Shown here: one piece after another, positions 2,828 through 24,733 of the stretch
Layout: each line of letters starts with the position of its first letter
Position numbering within the stretch: position 1 is the stretch's first letter
IMG/VR virus record: IMGVR_UViG_3300011832_000025
Reading direction: 5' to 3' (one strand)
Origin: a virus
Lineage: Duplodnaviria > Caudoviricetes
DNA length: 64,000 nt
Notes under the pieces: generated by a model
What the model saw: the letters and a program-made list of their open reading frames with translations, nothing else
The model's database searches: none
Told to the model about the DNA's origin: nothing
Translations under genes and position numbers: made by a program

Positions 2828-3612
2828 GCAAAGAAAATAAAGGACTGTACTCACCCTTTATGGAATTTGCATTGTACAGTACATGGATATGCTGGACCTA
2901 AAAGAAACAGATGGGTTGTATCCAGGCGTTTCTGTTGTTTTCAAAAATGATTGAAGTTAAGTTATCGATGTTGTTATGGCTTATGCCGTGACATAAGTCA
3001 CGATAACGCTAACAACATACTATTTTTGAAAACAAATAACACCGCGCGTTTTTGATGAAAGTGTATTGATATAAAATTTTACTTGACTTTTTTTCAATCA
3101 AGTTTATATTTTTTATGTTGAATAAATTCAACATAAAAAACCTTTGGCGGAGAGCGTCAACGGAATACCGATAATTGTATTATCTGTATAAAATAGCGCA
3201 TGAGGATTCAGTGTTGCACATAAACGGTTGACCCAATTAAAGCAACAATTGAAACCATTGAGGGTAAAGCAAAATACCGCTGAAATTCTCTAAAGAATTG
3301 AAAAAGCAACCGGCTTTTTCATGTCATGCGTAACAACGCGTTATCCCGGATTTGTTTTATAGATCCTGGTAAAAAAAGTAAGGATTATGAAATAGTTTGT
3401 ATTGTTTTTTAAATTATTTCCTATTTTTATCAATGCGGTTTACAAACATGAATTTTGATGGATAAAATGAGTGCTTGTACATGAAAAACTCTAGGAGGCG
3501 ACCAACCGGATGAAAGCGAGCGTCTCCCAGCTGCCCACGCAGTCTGTGCCCACGGCACGTGAAAATGGTTTTCCGGATCTGAGTACACAAGGCGCCTCTG
3601 GCGCCTTTTTCT
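2828..3612 (+). ncRNA. candidate large structured RNA (~780 nt) containing an ORF-less copy of the TnpB-element scaffold
   Basis: Bounded by a promoter and terminator; closing stem TGTACTCA (2846-2853)/TGAGTACA (3580-3587); many hairpins whose G-U pairs work only on the + strand. Confidence 0.6.
2870..3490 (+). mobile_element. non-autonomous, ORF-less relative of the TnpB element at 22158-24061
   Basis: 2866-2936 matches the reverse complement of 23996-24065 at 62/71 nt; same order of helices; right boundary inferred by analogy. Confidence 0.6.
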
Positions 3613-3680: not shown

Positions 3681-4142
3681 ATGGACGCCGTCTTTTATTT
3701 TCACTTTTACGCCCAGAACAATGATTTTACACCTACGCGTTCGTTGGCGTTTTACGCCACCAATATTACAACACCGTGGGACGAATTGGATTGGAAAATG
3801 GGCTACTCCGAAGGCGACATTGAAGCCCAGTACGGCGAGCACTGTGGATTGGTGGGGCTGACGATTGAATCAAGCGGAACCAAACTCATTGGGTACAGCA
3901 CTTCAAAAATCCATGAACAACAACGCGGGCCGCTGATGAACGTGTGGCGCGCCACGTTTTTGGAGATTGACCCCGGCTGTGTGGTCGGTGAGGTGTATGA
4001 TGTCACAGATATGGTTGGCACCGTGGATATCTATCGATACGTGAAAGACGCTTACGAACACCAGCAAGCCCAACAATTGCGTGGCACGTTAAACGCACAC
4101 ATCACAACCTGTGCCTCACCCACCGCCACGAAGAAAATGTAG
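3681..4142 (+). CDS. tandem paralog family A, copy 1 (C-terminal KKM tail)
   Basis: MDAVFYFHFY start shared with the neighbours; extended -10 GTGCTACACT at 3644. Confidence 0.85.
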   Translation: MDAVFYFHFYAQNNDFTPTRSLAFYATNITTPWDELDWKMGYSEGDIEAQYGEHCGLVGLTIESSGTKLIGYSTSKIHEQQRGPLMNVWRATFLEIDPGCVVGEVYDVTDMVGTVDIYRYVKDAYEHQQAQQLRGTLNAHITTCASPTATKKM

Positions 4143-4150
4143 GAGAATCC

Positions 4151-4651
4151 ATGGACGCCGTGTTTTTCATTTCATTTTATAAGCCCAACAAAAAGGATGG
4201 AGAGGATCCAATCTCGCACCACCTGGGCTTTTGCATCGGCAATCTGACACAACCATGGAATGAGATCAGAAAGACTGTTTATGAGTGCGAAGAGCAACTG
4301 GAACGCAAATATGGCCCAACCAGTTGGATGGGCGGCGGGCCGTCCAAACGCGTCAATGTCGTTTGGTACCGGTCGTACGAATTGAACGATTGCCATCATG
4401 GTGAACTGATGGAACAGTGGCGTCAGGCCTTTTTGCGCATCAGTCCCGGCTGCACGGTCAGCGATGTGTTAACCTTGAACCTCAACACACTGGCGTCGGT
4501 AACGGATATAAGTGAAGACGCACAGACATTTTCACGCGTCAAACAGGAGTACGAACACCAAGAAGCCGAGCAATTGCGCCAGAAACTCACCGGACTTGTG
4601 TTGAACACCCATGTGCCCACCAAGCGCTCCACTGCGGTTAAGAAAATCTAA
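4151..4651 (+). CDS. tandem paralog family A, copy 2
   Basis: AGGAG RBS; MDAVFF...WRQAF...PGCTVS...EQLR...KKI. Confidence 0.85.
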   Translation: MDAVFFISFYKPNKKDGEDPISHHLGFCIGNLTQPWNEIRKTVYECEEQLERKYGPTSWMGGGPSKRVNVVWYRSYELNDCHHGELMEQWRQAFLRISPGCTVSDVLTLNLNTLASVTDISEDAQTFSRVKQEYEHQEAEQLRQKLTGLVLNTHVPTKRSTAVKKI

Positions 4652-4659
4652 GAGAATGT

Positions 4660-5109
4660 ATGGACGTGATCCTTTATTTGCAATTTATCCATCCGCGCCA
4701 AGAGGTCTCAACGCGCGCGTTGTCGCTGTACGTCACCAATAGTGGCACAATGTGGGGACAATTGAACGCAGATGTTTTATCGTCCACCACCAATGTCAGC
4801 GCTCAATACGGTGAGATTCGTCCAATAATGTCCTCATCGAGAATGAGCATCATCAGTTGTATGTCTTTGGAAATTCACGATGTCCAAACCCAAGACCAAT
4901 GCATGCAAATGTGGCGGGAAACAGTGATGCAAAAAATTCCGGGCTGTGTGATCAGTGATGTGGTGGATGTGACCGATGCCTGCGGTTTCGCTGAAATTTG
5001 CGAACACACCCACCGCACGCACGAACAACAGCAAGCCGAATGTTTGCGCACGACCCTCACCACTCATGTCACAGCACCCGCCAGTGTGGCACCGTCCAAA
5101 AAACTCTAG
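4660..5109 (+). CDS. tandem paralog family A, copy 3
   Basis: MDVILY...WRE...PGCVIS...EQQQAECLR...KKL. Confidence 0.85.
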   Translation: MDVILYLQFIHPRQEVSTRALSLYVTNSGTMWGQLNADVLSSTTNVSAQYGEIRPIMSSSRMSIISCMSLEIHDVQTQDQCMQMWRETVMQKIPGCVISDVVDVTDACGFAEICEHTHRTHEQQQAECLRTTLTTHVTAPASVAPSKKL

Positions 5110-5117
5110 GAGACATC

Positions 5118-5564
5118 ATGAACGCCGTGTTTCATTTTCACTTTTACGACCCCAGCGATGATTTTACGCCCGTGCGCTCGTTGGCCTTTTACGCCACCAA
5201 TATGACCACAACCTGGGAACAATTGGATGAGACAATTGCCGTTTGCGCCGAAGACATGGACGCCAAATACGGCGAACACTGCGCGTTGATTGGACGTTCT
5301 GATCTTAACACCATCGGGTACGCCTCTTCGCACTTTGAAGGAACCCGCCAAGACCAAGTGATGGAGGCCTGGCGCAATGTTTTTGTGCAGAGAATTCGTG
5401 GTTGTGTGGTGGGGGATGTGTGCGATATCACCAGTGTGGACAATCTCAATGAAATCTTTCAACGCGTCCAAGACGCTTATGAACAACAGCAAGCTCAACT
5501 GTTGCGCGACCGATTGAATGAGCATGTCACAACACCCCAGACCGCCCCCCTCAAAAAAATGTAA
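5118..5564 (+). CDS. tandem paralog family A, copy 4
   Basis: AGGAG RBS; closest to copy 1 (DFTP.RSLAFYATN); ends KKM. Confidence 0.85.
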   Translation: MNAVFHFHFYDPSDDFTPVRSLAFYATNMTTTWEQLDETIAVCAEDMDAKYGEHCALIGRSDLNTIGYASSHFEGTRQDQVMEAWRNVFVQRIRGCVVGDVCDITSVDNLNEIFQRVQDAYEQQQAQLLRDRLNEHVTTPQTAPLKKM

Positions 5565-5574
5565 GGAGCACCCT

Positions 5575-6039
5575 ATGGACGCTGTATTTTATTTTTCGTT
5601 TTACATTGACACCTCTGACGACGATGATGAATACAACACTCTCACTGTGGGGTTTTACGTCAGCAACATTCGCAAACCGTGGAGCCAATTGGAAGAGGAT
5701 CTCGCTGATGTGGCCTCTGAGTTGGAGATGGAGTACGGTGTGCACGACTGGGGAACCTTGTCGGGCGCGAACGCTATTGGGTACCACTCCTCTGAGGTGA
5801 AAGAGGAGCACTGCGACGAATTGATGGAGCGGTGGCGCCAAGCGTTTATGGAGCGCGACCCAGGTTGTGTTGTCAGCGCGGTGTTTGAAGTCCCCAATAT
5901 GGGGGACATGAACGACGACGCCGACATTTTGCAATACATAAAAAACGCCCAGGAACAACAGCAGGCCCAACAGTTGCGCGACACCTTAAATCAACATGTG
6001 GCGAACAGGGGTTCTGTCGTCGCGCCCAAAAAGATGTGA
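5575..6039 (+). CDS. tandem paralog family A, copy 5
   Basis: AAGGAG RBS; MDAVFYFSFY...PGCVVS...KKM. Confidence 0.85.
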   Translation: MDAVFYFSFYIDTSDDDDEYNTLTVGFYVSNIRKPWSQLEEDLADVASELEMEYGVHDWGTLSGANAIGYHSSEVKEEHCDELMERWRQAFMERDPGCVVSAVFEVPNMGDMNDDADILQYIKNAQEQQQAQQLRDTLNQHVANRGSVVAPKKM

Positions 6040-20947: not shown

Positions 20948-21050
20948 ATGAATACTCTCCCCGCCACGCATCGAGTTCACCACCAACGCCATCGGCGTTA
21001 ATCGTGCGTGCCTGTATTTTGTATTTTTCAGGCCGCCACGCGGCCTTTTT
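20948..21050 (+). promoter_or_regulatory. His-type transcription attenuator: leader peptide MNTLPATHRVHHQRHRR (20948-21001) plus terminator
   Basis: 4 His and 4 Arg codons; CACGCA/TGCGTG, GCCTG/CAGGC and AGGCCGC/GCGGCCT-TTTT alternative hairpins; upstream of the alkB-like gene and hisS. Confidence 0.7.
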
Positions 21051-21082
21051 GCTGTCTGGCGGTCCCCTCTAAGGATCTCATC

Positions 21083-21664
21083 ATGACCTTTTTTAAACGT
21101 GACAACGCCGTCAACACCGCCTTGCCTATTGCGTTGTACCCCAGCAATTTGGACGCGAAAACCGTTGCGGAAATGGCCAACAGCGCGTGGACGGATTTTC
21201 CTTGGGAACGCCGCGAGGCGCCCCGTCGCGAGTGCTTCTATTCAACCTTGGGGAAATCGTACACCTACGGTTCGGGGCGCGGGGAACGCACCTACAATCC
21301 AGTTCCGTATTCTCCCATGGTGGAATATTGGACCAAAGAAGTGGAAGCGTTTTTAAACACCTCCTTCGAGTTGTGTTTTGCCAACGGGTACGAGAGCGAA
21401 AAAGAACACTTGGGGTGGCACGCCGACGACAGTCCGGAAGTGGACGACGCCCGCCCCATCGCCGTGTTGAGTTTGGGCGCGGAACGTGAAATTTGGGTGC
21501 GCCCCCGCGGTGGAGATTTCTCCACGGTTGAAAAGTTTGTATTGCCCAGCGGATCACTGTTCATCATGAACGCCGGCATGCAAGACACCCACGACCACAG
21601 GATCCCCAAAGCGGATCGCGTTTGTGGTTACAGGGTGAGTTTGACCTGGAGAGGGGCGGCGTGA
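21083..21664 (+). CDS. AlkB-family 2OG-Fe(II) dioxygenase
   Basis: N.Y...GWHADD...SLGA.R...H.IPK...RVSLTWR motifs. Confidence 0.9.
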   Translation: MTFFKRDNAVNTALPIALYPSNLDAKTVAEMANSAWTDFPWERREAPRRECFYSTLGKSYTYGSGRGERTYNPVPYSPMVEYWTKEVEAFLNTSFELCFANGYESEKEHLGWHADDSPEVDDARPIAVLSLGAEREIWVRPRGGDFSTVEKFVLPSGSLFIMNAGMQDTHDHRIPKADRVCGYRVSLTWRGAA

Positions 21665-22210
21665 GCTGCTCCAATCCGAAATTTATAATTCAATCAATAT
21701 AGGAGAACTGTTATGCTTCGTGGAACCCGTATGCTGTTGGGCACTGACGCCACCCGTTTAAACGATTTGTCAATCTCGTTGCGGAGCTCACTTCATCAAT
21801 GAAGGGCTGCAAGAATTGATTGTTCCCGCTATTTGGGAAAGCCAAACCTTTCTCAATAAGTTAGGCAAAGAAAAAGAAAATCAAATGTGGACCTTCACCG
21901 ATAAGGGCAACCGTGCGTGTTGTTTGGTTCCAGAAATTACAGGCATTGTGCAAGAAACCTGGCGCAACGAATGGTCCAAACAAATGAAAGGGTTATCGTT
22001 GTTTTACATCGCCCGGTGTTACCGCTACGACCGCCCTCAAGCCGGGCGTTACCGCGAATTCACCCAAGTTGGGGTGGAACTGTTGGGTAATCAGGCTAAT
22101 CCTATTCGCGCCTTGGAGATGCTTGAAACGGTGGTTCAACAATATTGCCCTCATTGGTCATTTCCATTCGTTCTCAATTGAGTGATCCATTCACACAATC
22201 CAGAACGTTT

Positions 22211-23872
22211 TTAACCACTTTGAACAAGTGGAGAGATGGTTTTATGTAAAGACTTGGGTGTTGTTGTACGTTTTTTCGGTTTAATGGGGTTTGCCGAAAA
22301 TACAACGCCCTGCCTTCCTCTCACGACCGACCCGGCCGCCAGACAATCGCTGTTGTTCTGTTGGAAGAAATCGCTGTTGTTCTGTTGGAAGAATTCTTCC
22401 AACAGCCGCCAGCCCTCCTGCCAGAGGTTAAAAGCTGCAGTATTGTCGCGAACATGGCTTGTATTGCAGGCGGTGCACACCCACGCGCGATCTTTGAGCA
22501 ATAAATGTTTGTTTTTTTCATGGCAAGCGGTGTTGGAACACCGCTTGCTCGAGGGAAACCATTTGTCCACGAAAATCAACGAACGGTTGTACCACGCGCA
22601 TTTGTATTTCAACTGTTCAATAATTTTGCCCATGCAAGATTCGTGCATTCTGCGCCGGAAACCCCGGCTGAGCGCTTTGGCCATGCCGTACAGCATCAAT
22701 GTTTCCACAACAATGGTGTGGTTTTCCTGCACCAGTTTGGTGGTGAACTTGTGAATGGCGTCGGTTTTGCGGAACAGTTCGTGCAAATCCAACACCGCGA
22801 TATGGTCTTGCAGTTTTTCCATGTTGCGGGTGTTTTTCTTTACGCCTTTCTTACTTAAGAGAGCCGTGGCGTTTTTCGGCCAGGCGCCATTGGCGTCGCG
22901 CACAATTCCATTGGATATGTAAAGTTGTTCTTGTTTACGAGAATACGCGCGTTGGTATTTGGTTTTGCGTTGCTCATGGTGTTCGTTGGAACGCAAAACC
23001 TCTTGGTTGAACAACGAGAAGGTTGTTACACCATCGCTTGTGGCCACCGCCCCGGACACCACCGACAAATCCAAAGCACCCACGCCCTTTCTCTCGGAAT
23101 TAAGAATGGTGTCCGTAGGGTCATCGGGGTACTCGATGAACTTGTGCGCTTTACGCTTGATCAAAGAGTGTTCCACATTGATCACGGACAACGAAATCAA
23201 CCACACGTTTCCTTTGCGTTTCACGGTCATGGAGGAGAGATCCCCAACCACCTCTTCGGTCAGAACAACCTTAACCGGACCCAATCCTGGAATGGATACC
23301 GTTTGGTTGTTCGCATCAATCGGGTGTTTGTGGCGGGGATCCACTTGAAAGGTGGCCCGTTCGTTTTTGCCCAAACGTTTGCGAAACACCGGTTGTCCCG
23401 GATCGTCGGAGCGTTTGCCCGCAACCCCGTCGTAAAAATTGGACCAGGCGGTTCCCAAGTGACGTAAGGAATTGGTTAAAACCGTGCGTGGGCACTTCTT
23501 CAGAAACGCCATATTGGTTTGATCAGCATGGACTTCAAAACCGTCCTGAGAATGCTGTTTGATCACTTGGGTGAGAGTGTTGGACAACACGTTGACCGTT
23601 AATGTTTTGGGGGAAGAGATTTCTTTACCCAAAACATCTTGATCTACAGTCTCAGGCTTTTCGTTGTCTGAAGGAGCAACATTACCTGTGCTATTTTTCC
23701 GTGATATTTCGTAGTGGTTTTGCTGAGACAACGCCCAATTCCAGACAAACCGCCCACACCCAATCCATTGCCGTAACAAAGCAGCTTGCTCCACCGTGGG
23801 ACACAGTCGAAACTGCTGTCCTTTGCACAGCAGTTCTTTGTTGCGTCGTTGGGATTTGCTTATGGTTGTCAT
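22211..23872 (-). CDS. tnpB: RNA-guided endonuclease TnpB (553 aa)
   Basis: HTH_OrfB-like FRLCPT..Q...RFVWN; RuvC-I ALDLS; RuvC-II VVETL; zinc finger CSNTAC...CTAC; RuvC-III RDNTAAFNL. Confidence 0.92.
   Translation of the reverse strand: MTTISKSQRRNKELLCKGQQFRLCPTVEQAALLRQWIGCGRFVWNWALSQQNHYEISRKNSTGNVAPSDNEKPETVDQDVLGKEISSPKTLTVNVLSNTLTQVIKQHSQDGFEVHADQTNMAFLKKCPRTVLTNSLRHLGTAWSNFYDGVAGKRSDDPGQPVFRKRLGKNERATFQVDPRHKHPIDANNQTVSIPGLGPVKVVLTEEVVGDLSSMTVKRKGNVWLISLSVINVEHSLIKRKAHKFIEYPDDPTDTILNSERKGVGALDLSVVSGAVATSDGVTTFSLFNQEVLRSNEHHEQRKTKYQRAYSRKQEQLYISNGIVRDANGAWPKNATALLSKKGVKKNTRNMEKLQDHIAVLDLHELFRKTDAIHKFTTKLVQENHTIVVETLMLYGMAKALSRGFRRRMHESCMGKIIEQLKYKCAWYNRSLIFVDKWFPSSKRCSNTACHEKNKHLLLKDRAWVCTACNTSHVRDNTAAFNLWQEGWRLLEEFFQQNNSDFFQQNNSDCLAAGSVVRGRQGVVFSANPIKPKKRTTTPKSLHKTISPLVQSG
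22345..22392. repeat. 24-bp in-frame tandem duplication in the tnpB 3' end (FFQQNNSD x2)
   Basis: AATCGCTGTTGTTCTGTTGGAAGA occurs twice in tandem. Confidence 0.95.
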
Positions 23873-24313
23873 GCACAGATATTACGCAAAAATGCATCAA
23901 ACATCAAGAATTTCTGTTCACAAAGTGGTTAAAAACCGTGGAAATGGAGCTTTGTTTGCATTTCATAAAAAAATGGATCAAAAATTTTTTATGAAAACGG
24001 AAACGCCTGGATAAAACCCATCTGTTTCCTTGGGCCCAGCACGTCCATGTGCTGTACAATGCAAACCAAAGCCAATGTCCAACGTGGGTTAAGTTATTAT
24101 GTGGAGAACGGGTTTGAGGTGGAAGCCTCCTGGTTGGGGGCGCAAAAACAAGTGGCCGGCGGTGGGGCTTACGCCGAAGGGGTCGGCTGGGCCATTGGCT
24201 TGGATCGGTTGGATTTGGCCCGGCAAACCCAAAAAACATGTTGAGGTTGGATCCCCAAACCCTTGTGTTTCCGCTAAACCTCGTTAGTATTAACATTTAT
24301 CCTAGGAATACCC

Positions 24314-24733
24314 ATGATTATTTTGGCCGGAATTGTAGCGGCATTGTTGGTTTGTTGTGGTATAGGATATAAGTTAAAAACATCATATGATTTAAAACAT
24401 GCTCTGAAACGATCGGGGGCTTGTGATTTACCTATTGTTAAGACCAGTCGTTACCAATCAAGTCTTTTTAGGCTGGCCGGCGGAAAATGTTTTGATGGCG
24501 TACATGTGCGGACGGTGGCTCAGTTGATTTTCGAAACGCACAATAGCGATGATAAGGCGGTTCGTGTAGAAATACAGGGTCACACTGTGGGGTATTTATC
24601 TGCACTCAATGCCCAACTGTTTCGAGTTAAACACCGAAAAGGGGGGTCATGTCCAGCCTTGATCATGGGGGGTTGGCAAAGAGATCGAGAACAAGGGGAC
24701 TTTACTGTATATCTGGATTTTGATCTTCACTAA
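24314..24733 (+). CDS. membrane-anchored HIRAN-like domain protein
   Basis: N-terminal TM; DDKAVRVEIQGHTVGYLS...CPALIMGG. Confidence 0.65.
   Translation: MIILAGIVAALLVCCGIGYKLKTSYDLKHALKRSGACDLPIVKTSRYQSSLFRLAGGKCFDGVHVRTVAQLIFETHNSDDKAVRVEIQGHTVGYLSALNAQLFRVKHRKGGSCPALIMGGWQRDREQGDFTVYLDFDLH

Follow-up and report, generated by a model that had tools for sequence, protein, structure and literature searches.

The window analysed here, a 64-kb stretch of viral DNA (64,000 nt; Caudoviricetes, IMG/VR record IMGVR_UViG_3300011832_000025), carries a TnpB insertion element of about 1.9 kb at positions 22154-24061. The element is read on the minus strand and its ends are good to 1 nt; it opens with CATTGTACAG at the left end and closes with GAAATGACCAA at the right end (all coordinates are window positions unless another locus is named). 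Its tnpB open reading frame (ORF; 22211-23872, minus strand) encodes a protein of 553 aa in which the RuvC triad is intact and the zinc-finger cysteines are present, and lies antisense inside a short HisRS-like gene of the plus strand. A segment upstream of tnpB, which we term the splint (23921-23946, minus strand), is complementary to two short stretches at the right end of the element (22159-22166 and 22207-22222), and counterpart helices of unrelated sequence occupy the same places in all 12 family loci that we compared.

By its domains, its D-E-D triad, its CxxC...CxxC finger and the structured omegaRNA described below, the protein appears to be a TnpB RNA-guided endonuclease. It matched HTH_OrfB_IS605 (PF12323) and Cas12f1-like_TNB (PF07282) above the Pfam cut-offs, PF01385 weakly, and the NCBIfam model guided_TnpB (NF040570) with 184 bits against a cut-off of 100; IS200_TnpB (171 bits) scored higher than IS607_TnpB (121 bits), both under their exception cut-offs. 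The nearest solved structure is that of ISDra2 TnpB (profile E 1e-63). Among 47 sequences D268 and E390 do not vary and the conservation of D476 is 90% or more, so that the RuvC residues are intact as originally noted, and the zinc-finger residues C445, C450, C466 and C469 are likewise invariant. An AlphaFold model reached a predicted local distance difference test (pLDDT) score of 63, with residues ~499-553 predicted to be disordered. About 60 relatives, of roughly 520-670 aa and 34-89% identical, were retrieved, all from ENA and Logan metagenome assemblies, and the family that they form stands out by the unusual size of its TnpBs and has been seen in metagenomes alone. A family profile run against IMG/VR, GTDB genomes and JGI metagenomes returned ordinary TnpBs only (23-33% identity in full-length matches); these were of no use for flank comparison and served as the negative control. 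The 12 family loci (34-89% protein identity; designated by L numbers) were gathered through exact protein look-up. In one of them, L246, a second and larger TnpB-like gene (3984-5632, minus strand; 703 aa, Cas12f1-like_TNB) lies convergent to the first, about 350 nt downstream of it.

Helices that join the two ends across tnpB

Two helices link the region upstream of tnpB with the right end. The first, X1, is a perfect 16-bp inverted repeat (22207-22222 / 23921-23936), one pair longer than the 15 bp of the original prediction, and its 3' arm, X1b (22207-22222), holds the TAA stop codon (22211-22213). The repeat has just two matches in the 64 kb at up to two mismatches, with 0.12 expected. In the second helix, X2, CATTTCCA (23946-23939) pairs with TGGAAATG (22166-22159) over 8 bp and stops 5 nt short of the right end. 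Read on the minus strand, the splint consists of X2a (CATTTCCA, 23946-23939), CG, and X1a (GTTTTTAACCACTTTG, 23936-23921), and CG alone separates the two; at the right end (22154-22166), X2b (TGGAAATG, 22166-22159) is followed directly by the conserved terminus ACCAA (22158-22154). A hairpin (22206-22170) lies between X1b and X2b. Since the 3' arms flank this hairpin and the 5' arms adjoin each other, the upstream segment forms a splint, and a three-way junction results from the three helices. Chance falls far short of explaining X1 and X2. Both had been noted in the original prediction, and its core stands: the two ends are linked around the ORF by conserved, covarying helices whose 3' strands lie directly before the predicted guide.

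The covariation that the prediction called for in homologs was found. X1 and X2 stay complementary in 12/12 loci despite sequences that are unrelated in at least six lineages, and compensatory substitutions divide close relatives, for example the window from L245 and L247 from L248. The X2 strands (5'/3') read CATTTCCA / TGGAAATG in the window, CATTTTCAC / GTGAAAATG in L245, CTTTCTGTTG / CAACAGAAAG in L246, CTTATCTCCGC / GCGGAGATAAG in L247, CTCATCTCCG / CGGAGATGAG in L248, CTCTCCCC(C) / (G)GGGGAGAG in both L252 and L253, CTTGTCCTT / AAGGATAAG with one G-U pair in L254, and CTCACCC / GGGTGAG in L255. X1 ranges from 18 perfect pairs (L254) down to an A/U helix of 5-7 bp (L247, L248), and in L245 it shows a compensatory change from A-U to G-C. 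The X2 helices of the close relatives L241, L242 and L244 contain single mismatches without compensation.

The position of the splint is fixed relative to the putative promoter, the right-end hairpin and the right end itself. Its equivalents in the 12 loci lie 34-87 nt upstream of the ATG, the 3' limit always falls 34-66 nt upstream of it, and the -35 box is located between splint and ATG. Helix length (5-18 bp), spacer (0-8 nt) and sequence all drift freely beside adjoining motifs that are invariant, which argues for a constraint on pairing and not for a protein site. Cofolding predicted the three-way junction in 12/12 loci. The interaction energy of each splint with its own right end was -18 to -38 kcal/mol, compared to a mean of -5.7 (minimum -14.8) for pairs across subfamilies and -3 to -14 kcal/mol for shuffled splints. 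The segments for these energies were picked by eye, at consistent positions (the start of X2a is 58-87 nt upstream of the ATG, and 5 nt separate X2b from the right end). With long segments, RNAduplex could not tell own from foreign pairs, and the defined segments were used instead.

No partner for X1b and X2b was found inside the omegaRNA region. Two further pairings were considered and rejected: that of X2b with the 3' strand CGTTTCCGTTTG of the left-end pseudoknot PKb (see below), which in the closest subfamily would include 3-4 G-U pairs and is not kept in L245, and that of the terminal ACCAA with a TTGGT partner, present in some loci only. Among 162 ordinary tnpB loci the longest complement between upstream and downstream regions followed the control distribution, except in L060 and L069 and in a cluster of 11-12 nt, and the splint complementarity thus appears specific to the family. 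L060 and L069 are near-identical IMG/VR loci with a TnpB of ordinary size from a different family; they contain an 18-bp perfect inverted repeat (TATTACTTAAAATTTAAT / ATTAAATTTTAAGTAATA) with the 5' arm placed ahead of the start codon and the stop codon included in the 3' arm.

The omegaRNA, the left-end module and the element borders

The 3' end of the ORF encodes a putative omegaRNA body (22248-22416, minus strand). RNAalifold, applied to the last 265 nt of 9 elements, gave three stems with 10 pairs that show compensatory changes: stem A (~22416-22346), hairpin B (22343-22319) and stem C (22317-22308 / 22258-22248), which encloses a variable hairpin. Hairpin B (UCUGGCGGCCGGGUCGGUCGUGAGA) is nucleotide-invariant between proteins that are just 36-50% identical, with one compensatory change, in L254. 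The peptide encoded over this region is predicted to be disordered, and the constraint therefore acts on the nucleic acid. The structure extends over the ORF 3' end and the right end, up to a sharp conserved terminus followed by a variable flank, as is characteristic of an omegaRNA. We conclude from these sequence comparisons that a canonical omegaRNA is still encoded in the ORF 3' end, contiguous with the predicted guide. This body, with its covarying stems and invariant hairpin, does not agree with the proposal that the guide scaffold consists of a left-end piece plus a short repeat-like piece. A pairing of GGUC, from the invariant hairpin, with GACC at -6 to -3 is conceivable. The right-end or 'guide adapter' hairpin (22170-22206, minus strand; loop AATGGAT) has a covarying stem, which is a perfect 15 bp in L241, and its loop motif A-N-GGA is found again in other loci. 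When the right end is folded alone, the sense strand is favoured by 3.2 kcal/mol on average (p=0.002). This last hairpin, which resembles stem 4 (S4) of the ISDra2 omegaRNA, is flanked by X1b and X2b as additional single-stranded arms. The tnpB 3' end of the window also carries a perfect 24-nt tandem duplication (22345-22392) that has no counterpart in any relative; it repeats FFQQNNSD in the protein and doubles the 3' strand of stem A.

The left end is structured as well. Its module (23999-24061, minus strand) comprises hairpin L1 (24054-24049 / 24042-24037), hairpin L2 (24036-24031 / 24020-24015) and PKb, a pairing of the L2 loop (24029-24024) with 24004-23999 (GGAAAC/GTTTCC). In six sequences 94.7% of the cells are paired, and three pairs, in L1 and PKb, show compensatory changes; in L255 PKb is swapped for CAGACC/GGTCTG at the same place. 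By this comparison the left end holds a conserved H-type pseudoknot, with invariant G-U pairs in the module. The original prediction had described a double pseudoknot here. Its two hairpins and the GGAAAC/GTTTCC pairing were confirmed; the second pairing, TGGA/TCCA (24047-24044 / 24011-24008), shows no covariation and is broken in 3/24 cells. Between the module and the splint lies a variable AT-rich hairpin (23961-23996, minus strand; 12-bp stem), whose loop holds a 9-nt sequence (23980-23972) proposed to make a kissing contact with the right end. The complementarity is present in the window (~0.1 match expected by chance, by our own estimate) and is not conserved: L241 is without the hairpin, L242 has a different hairpin and no complementarity, L244 retains 6 nt only, and L245 too has a different hairpin in this place.

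No Rfam family, Intron_gpI included, matched the element, at E up to 10 for the window region and up to 1 for 8 loci; a strong match to a described family, which would have spoken against novelty, was thus not obtained. A chance-level BjrC68 match fell outside the element, and L254 gave a sub-threshold RAGATH-22 match over its right-end/omegaRNA region (3428-3563, plus strand; 26 bits against a gathering score of 120, E 0.48). HDV-like (hepatitis delta virus) and group I topologies for the left end were rejected by eye against the helix order. A covariance model of the left-end module matched its training sequences only. Left-end modules were also seen apart from this tnpB. A second copy in the window (2868-2955, plus strand; 92 bits against the model) shows a compensatory AGAAAC/GTTTCT in PKb and the same junction, TTTG|CATTG, with no tnpB after it. 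GACCAA at 3500-3505 and a mini-hairpin with a GATGGAT loop near 3450 hint at a right end and at an element of ~640 nt, but no convincing right end and no X1/X2 pair were found for this ORF-less copy. In L248 a left-end-like module (CATTGAATGATTATGGGACATAATCCGACCC...; 3807-4110) begins 48 nt past the right end of the TnpB element and is followed by an unrelated ORF of 386 aa (4111-5271) without a family match. Left-end modules may hence carry other cargo.

The putative tnpB promoter (23873-23907, minus strand) consists of TTGATG (23907-23902), 17 nt, TAATAT (23884-23879) and 6 nt before the ATG. The layout TTGAT-like / 16-17 nt / TAnnnT / 6 nt / ATG recurs in 9/12 loci, none with a Shine-Dalgarno sequence; in a consensus scan the tnpB promoter scored under the threshold. 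Given the 6-nt spacing from -10 box to ATG and the lack of a Shine-Dalgarno sequence, the tnpB mRNA is probably leaderless and would start downstream of the splint, which is therefore probably absent from it.

The borders of the element were placed by comparison of the window with L241, L242, L244 and L245. The shared sequence is bounded at TTTG|CATTGTACAG (24061 or 24060) and GAAATGACCAA| (22154), and the flanks are unrelated; the limits first proposed, 22158-24065, are corrected accordingly. The left-end start CAT(T/A) is found again across subfamilies, distant members included, and GACCA(A/C) closes the element in 12/12 loci. The flank at 22134-22153 (minus strand), which belongs to the host HisRS-like sequence, would encode the guide if the canonical TnpB layout applies (PMC10097598). 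TTTG adjoining the left end (24062-24065) is a candidate transposon-associated motif (TAM) from flank comparison. In the closest subfamily the 4 nt before CAT are TTTG in 3/6 copies, in partial agreement with the TTTG(C) predicted originally, and GCTG, TATG and TCAT in the others; outside this subfamily the flank mostly ends in TG. TTTG as the TAM is plausible but not established. The flanks contain no target-site duplication, the terminal ACCAA has no repeat copy and the left arm begins ~115 nt inside the left end, so that neither the terminal repeats nor the target duplication of a terminal-inverted-repeat transposon are found here. The left end is separated from the ATG by only ~140-250 nt in the 12 loci. 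Among the called neighbour genes of 12/12 loci we found no tnpA and no other transposase family, hence not the adjacent Y1 (HUH) transposase gene of an autonomous IS605 element. The orientation of the element relative to its neighbours is mixed across the family loci. The element is best described as IS1341-like: a tnpB insertion element of the IS200/IS605 type that stands alone, without tnpA. A repeat search of 21500-24700 revealed no CRISPR array; the sole repeat it found was the 24-nt duplication inside the ORF.

The interrupted host gene is split into an N-terminal part (21762-22181, plus strand), which matches tRNA-synt_His and contains the class II core, and a C-terminal part (23969-24244, plus strand), which has no Pfam match and in which a motif-3-like sequence was recognised by eye. 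By arithmetic, excision of 22154-24060 fuses the two HisRS-like reading frames in frame. The product would be a very short HisRS-like/HisZ-like protein without an insertion domain and without an anticodon-binding domain. Just upstream lies an AlkB-like ORF (21002-21664; our own reading of the translation), and the remaining window genes are bacterial in look, with MCP, HipA and ankyrin proteins and many ORFans.

Possible roles of the pairing

We tentatively favour an RNA fold-back clamp, formed on transcripts that contain the left end and regulating the omegaRNA, as a possible account of this arrangement. If, as we infer, the paired molecules are RNA, the splint (25-35 nt, family-specific) would pair with both single-stranded arms of the last omegaRNA hairpin, in a three-way junction ending 5 nt ahead of the guide. 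The tnpB mRNA made from its own promoter would be without the splint, and its omegaRNA would stay free. Sense transcription entering at the left end would include the splint, which would then bind the guide-adapter region, by fold-back or in trans, as a rigid duplex clamp. The presumed direction of the effect is that the clamp masks this region or marks it for processing, for example by RNase III. The splint would then be a built-in regulator of guide-RNA maturation or activity. An RNA reading is supported by the covariation, together with the sense-strand G-U pairs in the omegaRNA body and the left-end module.

Several observations weigh against this reading. The intermolecular term of X1/X2 has no strand bias (mean difference 0.08 kcal/mol, p=0.68), and the extensions of the helices are not enriched in G-U (19 G-U against 27 A-C). 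The original statement that G-U pairs function on the tnpB strand only thus applies to the left-end module and the right-end hairpin and not to the cross-ORF helices. With no such bias, pairing in RNA and in single-stranded DNA are inseparable, and by strand bias double-stranded DNA explains X1 and X2 equally well; the data exclude it weakly. The family loci revealed no conserved promoter from which a left-end RNA could be made, so that a sense RNA with the splint would need read-through. The gain from silencing an omegaRNA in read-through transcripts is not obvious. Finally, IS200/IS605 transposition uses folded single-stranded DNA ends, and the element is of that type.

The last point leads to an explanation that we place close behind the clamp and regard as somewhat unlikely, a synapsis of the ends in single-stranded DNA. 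The top strand would be single-stranded at replication, and the splint with the right-end arms would make a DNA three-way junction that keeps the left-end-proximal region joined to the right end and aids excision or integration of the 1.9-kb element by a Y1 TnpA acting in trans. The affinity of the protein to ISDra2 TnpB and to the IS200/IS605 model fits this, as do the almost purely Watson-Crick X1 and X2 without G-U bias, which DNA predicts. The right-end hairpin and terminus are omegaRNA parts shaped by the transposase (PMC10691335), the left-end-like modules with other cargo suggest that the ends are a transposition module, and the failure to find a left-end RNA promoter in the family loci is in line with it too. 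However, no tnpA is among the called neighbours in 12/12 loci, the splint lies more than 100 nt away from the left-end cleavage site, and the invariant G-U pairs and H-type pseudoknot of the left-end module are more typical of RNA. Moreover, for IS200/IS605 the literature searched describes only local subterminal hairpins (PMC9956272), and no pairing of left with right end.

An obligate bipartite guide, in which a tracrRNA-like (trans-activating CRISPR RNA) left-end RNA must pair with X1b and X2b for an active TnpB ribonucleoprotein, seems unlikely to us. The covariation of X1 and X2 would fit it equally, the protein is ~145 aa bigger than ISDra2 TnpB, and the order X2a-X1a ... X1b-hairpin-X2b-guide parallels PK5'-S2a ... 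S2b-S4-PK3'-guide of ISDra2 (PMC10097598). Yet the complete canonical omegaRNA body persists in the ORF 3' end, its invariant GGUC/GACC could make the usual pseudoknot without the splint, and the splint lies outside the probable tnpB transcript, without a promoter of its own. In the three-way junction X1 and X2 would, in addition, keep the arms apart and not together.

We consider it quite improbable that the arms are a double-stranded DNA inverted repeat, whether used by a transposase, recombinase or invertase for binding or crossover, or left over from the origin of the element. Arms that are Watson-Crick and without strand bias are compatible with this, and the unrelated tnpB family of L060/L069 likewise has an 18-bp repeat around its ORF. 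The geometry argues otherwise: the left arm is ~115 nt internal, the terminal ACCAA lies outside the repeat, and a target-site duplication is absent. A hairpin of 25-40 bp splits the right copy and 0-8 nt the left, giving sites of differing geometry; this interruption of one arm argues against a protein-binding repeat, as does the free variation between subfamilies in sequence, length and spacing. The alternative raised with the original prediction, that a structured-RNA mobile element (a new intron or ribozyme with left and right end as its core) carries TnpB as its passenger, is very improbable: the two ends would fold into a compact domain of several helices and ~250 nt, the ORF being placed in a loop, and the left-end modules without tnpB at 2868-2955 and in L248 from 3807 lend it weak support, but the intron reading is opposed by the insertion antisense to the interrupted gene and the mixed orientation to neighbours, no group I or II intron or known ribozyme was matched in Rfam at E up to 10, the ends are unlike splice sites, and the omegaRNA body with its invariant GACCAA terminus suits an ordinary TnpB element.

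Comparison with known systems

Cas12 descends from TnpB elements, which are under development as compact genome editors and whose guide RNA has been taken to come from the ORF 3' end and right end alone. A splint from left end to right end was not found described for TnpB elements in the literature searched. The closest structural reference is ISDra2 TnpB (IS200/IS605; PDB 8h1j, 8bf8), whose omegaRNA runs S1 (the loop of which holds the 5' pseudoknot strand), S2a, S3, S2b, S4, 3' pseudoknot strand and guide, a natural fusion of tracr-like and crRNA-like (CRISPR RNA) parts (PMC10097598). The two systems share the RuvC triad, the zinc finger and an omegaRNA over the ORF 3' end and right end, and in both the last hairpin leads into a terminus that is short and conserved, has G at -6 and A at -2, and precedes the guide. 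The omegaRNA body here follows the ISDra2 plan, and a pseudoknot with an upstream loop is plausible. In contrast to ISDra2, the protein is ~145 aa longer, tnpA is lacking, and ~95 nt separate the S2-like stem from the terminus, where ISDra2 has a 24-nt stem 4; two single-stranded arms pair with an upstream segment, and the left end has a conserved H-type pseudoknot. The IS1341-type elements, too, have tnpB as their sole gene, with subterminal hairpins, precise ends and no obvious target duplication. For these the literature searched gives local hairpins only (PMC9956272), unlike the cross-ORF pairing described here.

The nearest documented case of a left-end RNA acting on the right end and omegaRNA is that of the IStrons, which combine a group I intron with TnpB, show an interplay of both ends at the RNA level (10.1101/2023.11.20.567912), and have two RNA fates that are mutually exclusive (10.1101/2023.11.20.567912; PMC13521648). 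The present element has no group I intron, its left end is ~190 nt as opposed to ~580 nt, and it is antisense to its host gene where an IStron lies in sense. Its ends are joined by a simple splint and three-way junction and not by splice-site recognition.

In the tracrRNA:crRNA duplexes of Cas12f and other type V systems, and in the 'RNA splitting' route that leads to them from TnpB, a second strand likewise pairs just 5' of the guide. The differences are that no CRISPR array is present here, that the omegaRNA body is contiguous with the guide and that the complementary strand lies upstream of the gene. If TnpB did require a separate left-end RNA, paired with both sides of the last omegaRNA hairpin, we would be dealing with a naturally two-RNA TnpB (a tracr-like RNA and an omegaRNA) and with a living intermediate from the single-RNA nucleases of transposons to the dual-RNA Cas12 systems, which we think doubtful; less probably than a regulatory role, the splint would then be a natural second guide-RNA subunit with a bearing on the origin of tracrRNA. 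If the link acts in single-stranded DNA, it would represent a new way to join the ends of IS200/IS605 elements. In either case the left end deserves to be treated as a variable when the nuclease is reconstituted, with constructs that include it and constructs that do not.

With respect to regulation, there is a likeness to IS10 and IS50. In their read-through transcripts a sequence from the outside end pairs with an internal sequence and shields the element from external promoters. Here, too, a sequence near the outside end would pair with an internal one only in transcripts begun outside the element. The target in IS10 and IS50 is the ribosome-binding site of the transposase, whereas in the present element the guide-adapter part of the omegaRNA, 1.7 kb off, would take that place, and if the link acts in RNA it would add a new control layer over guide-RNA maturation.

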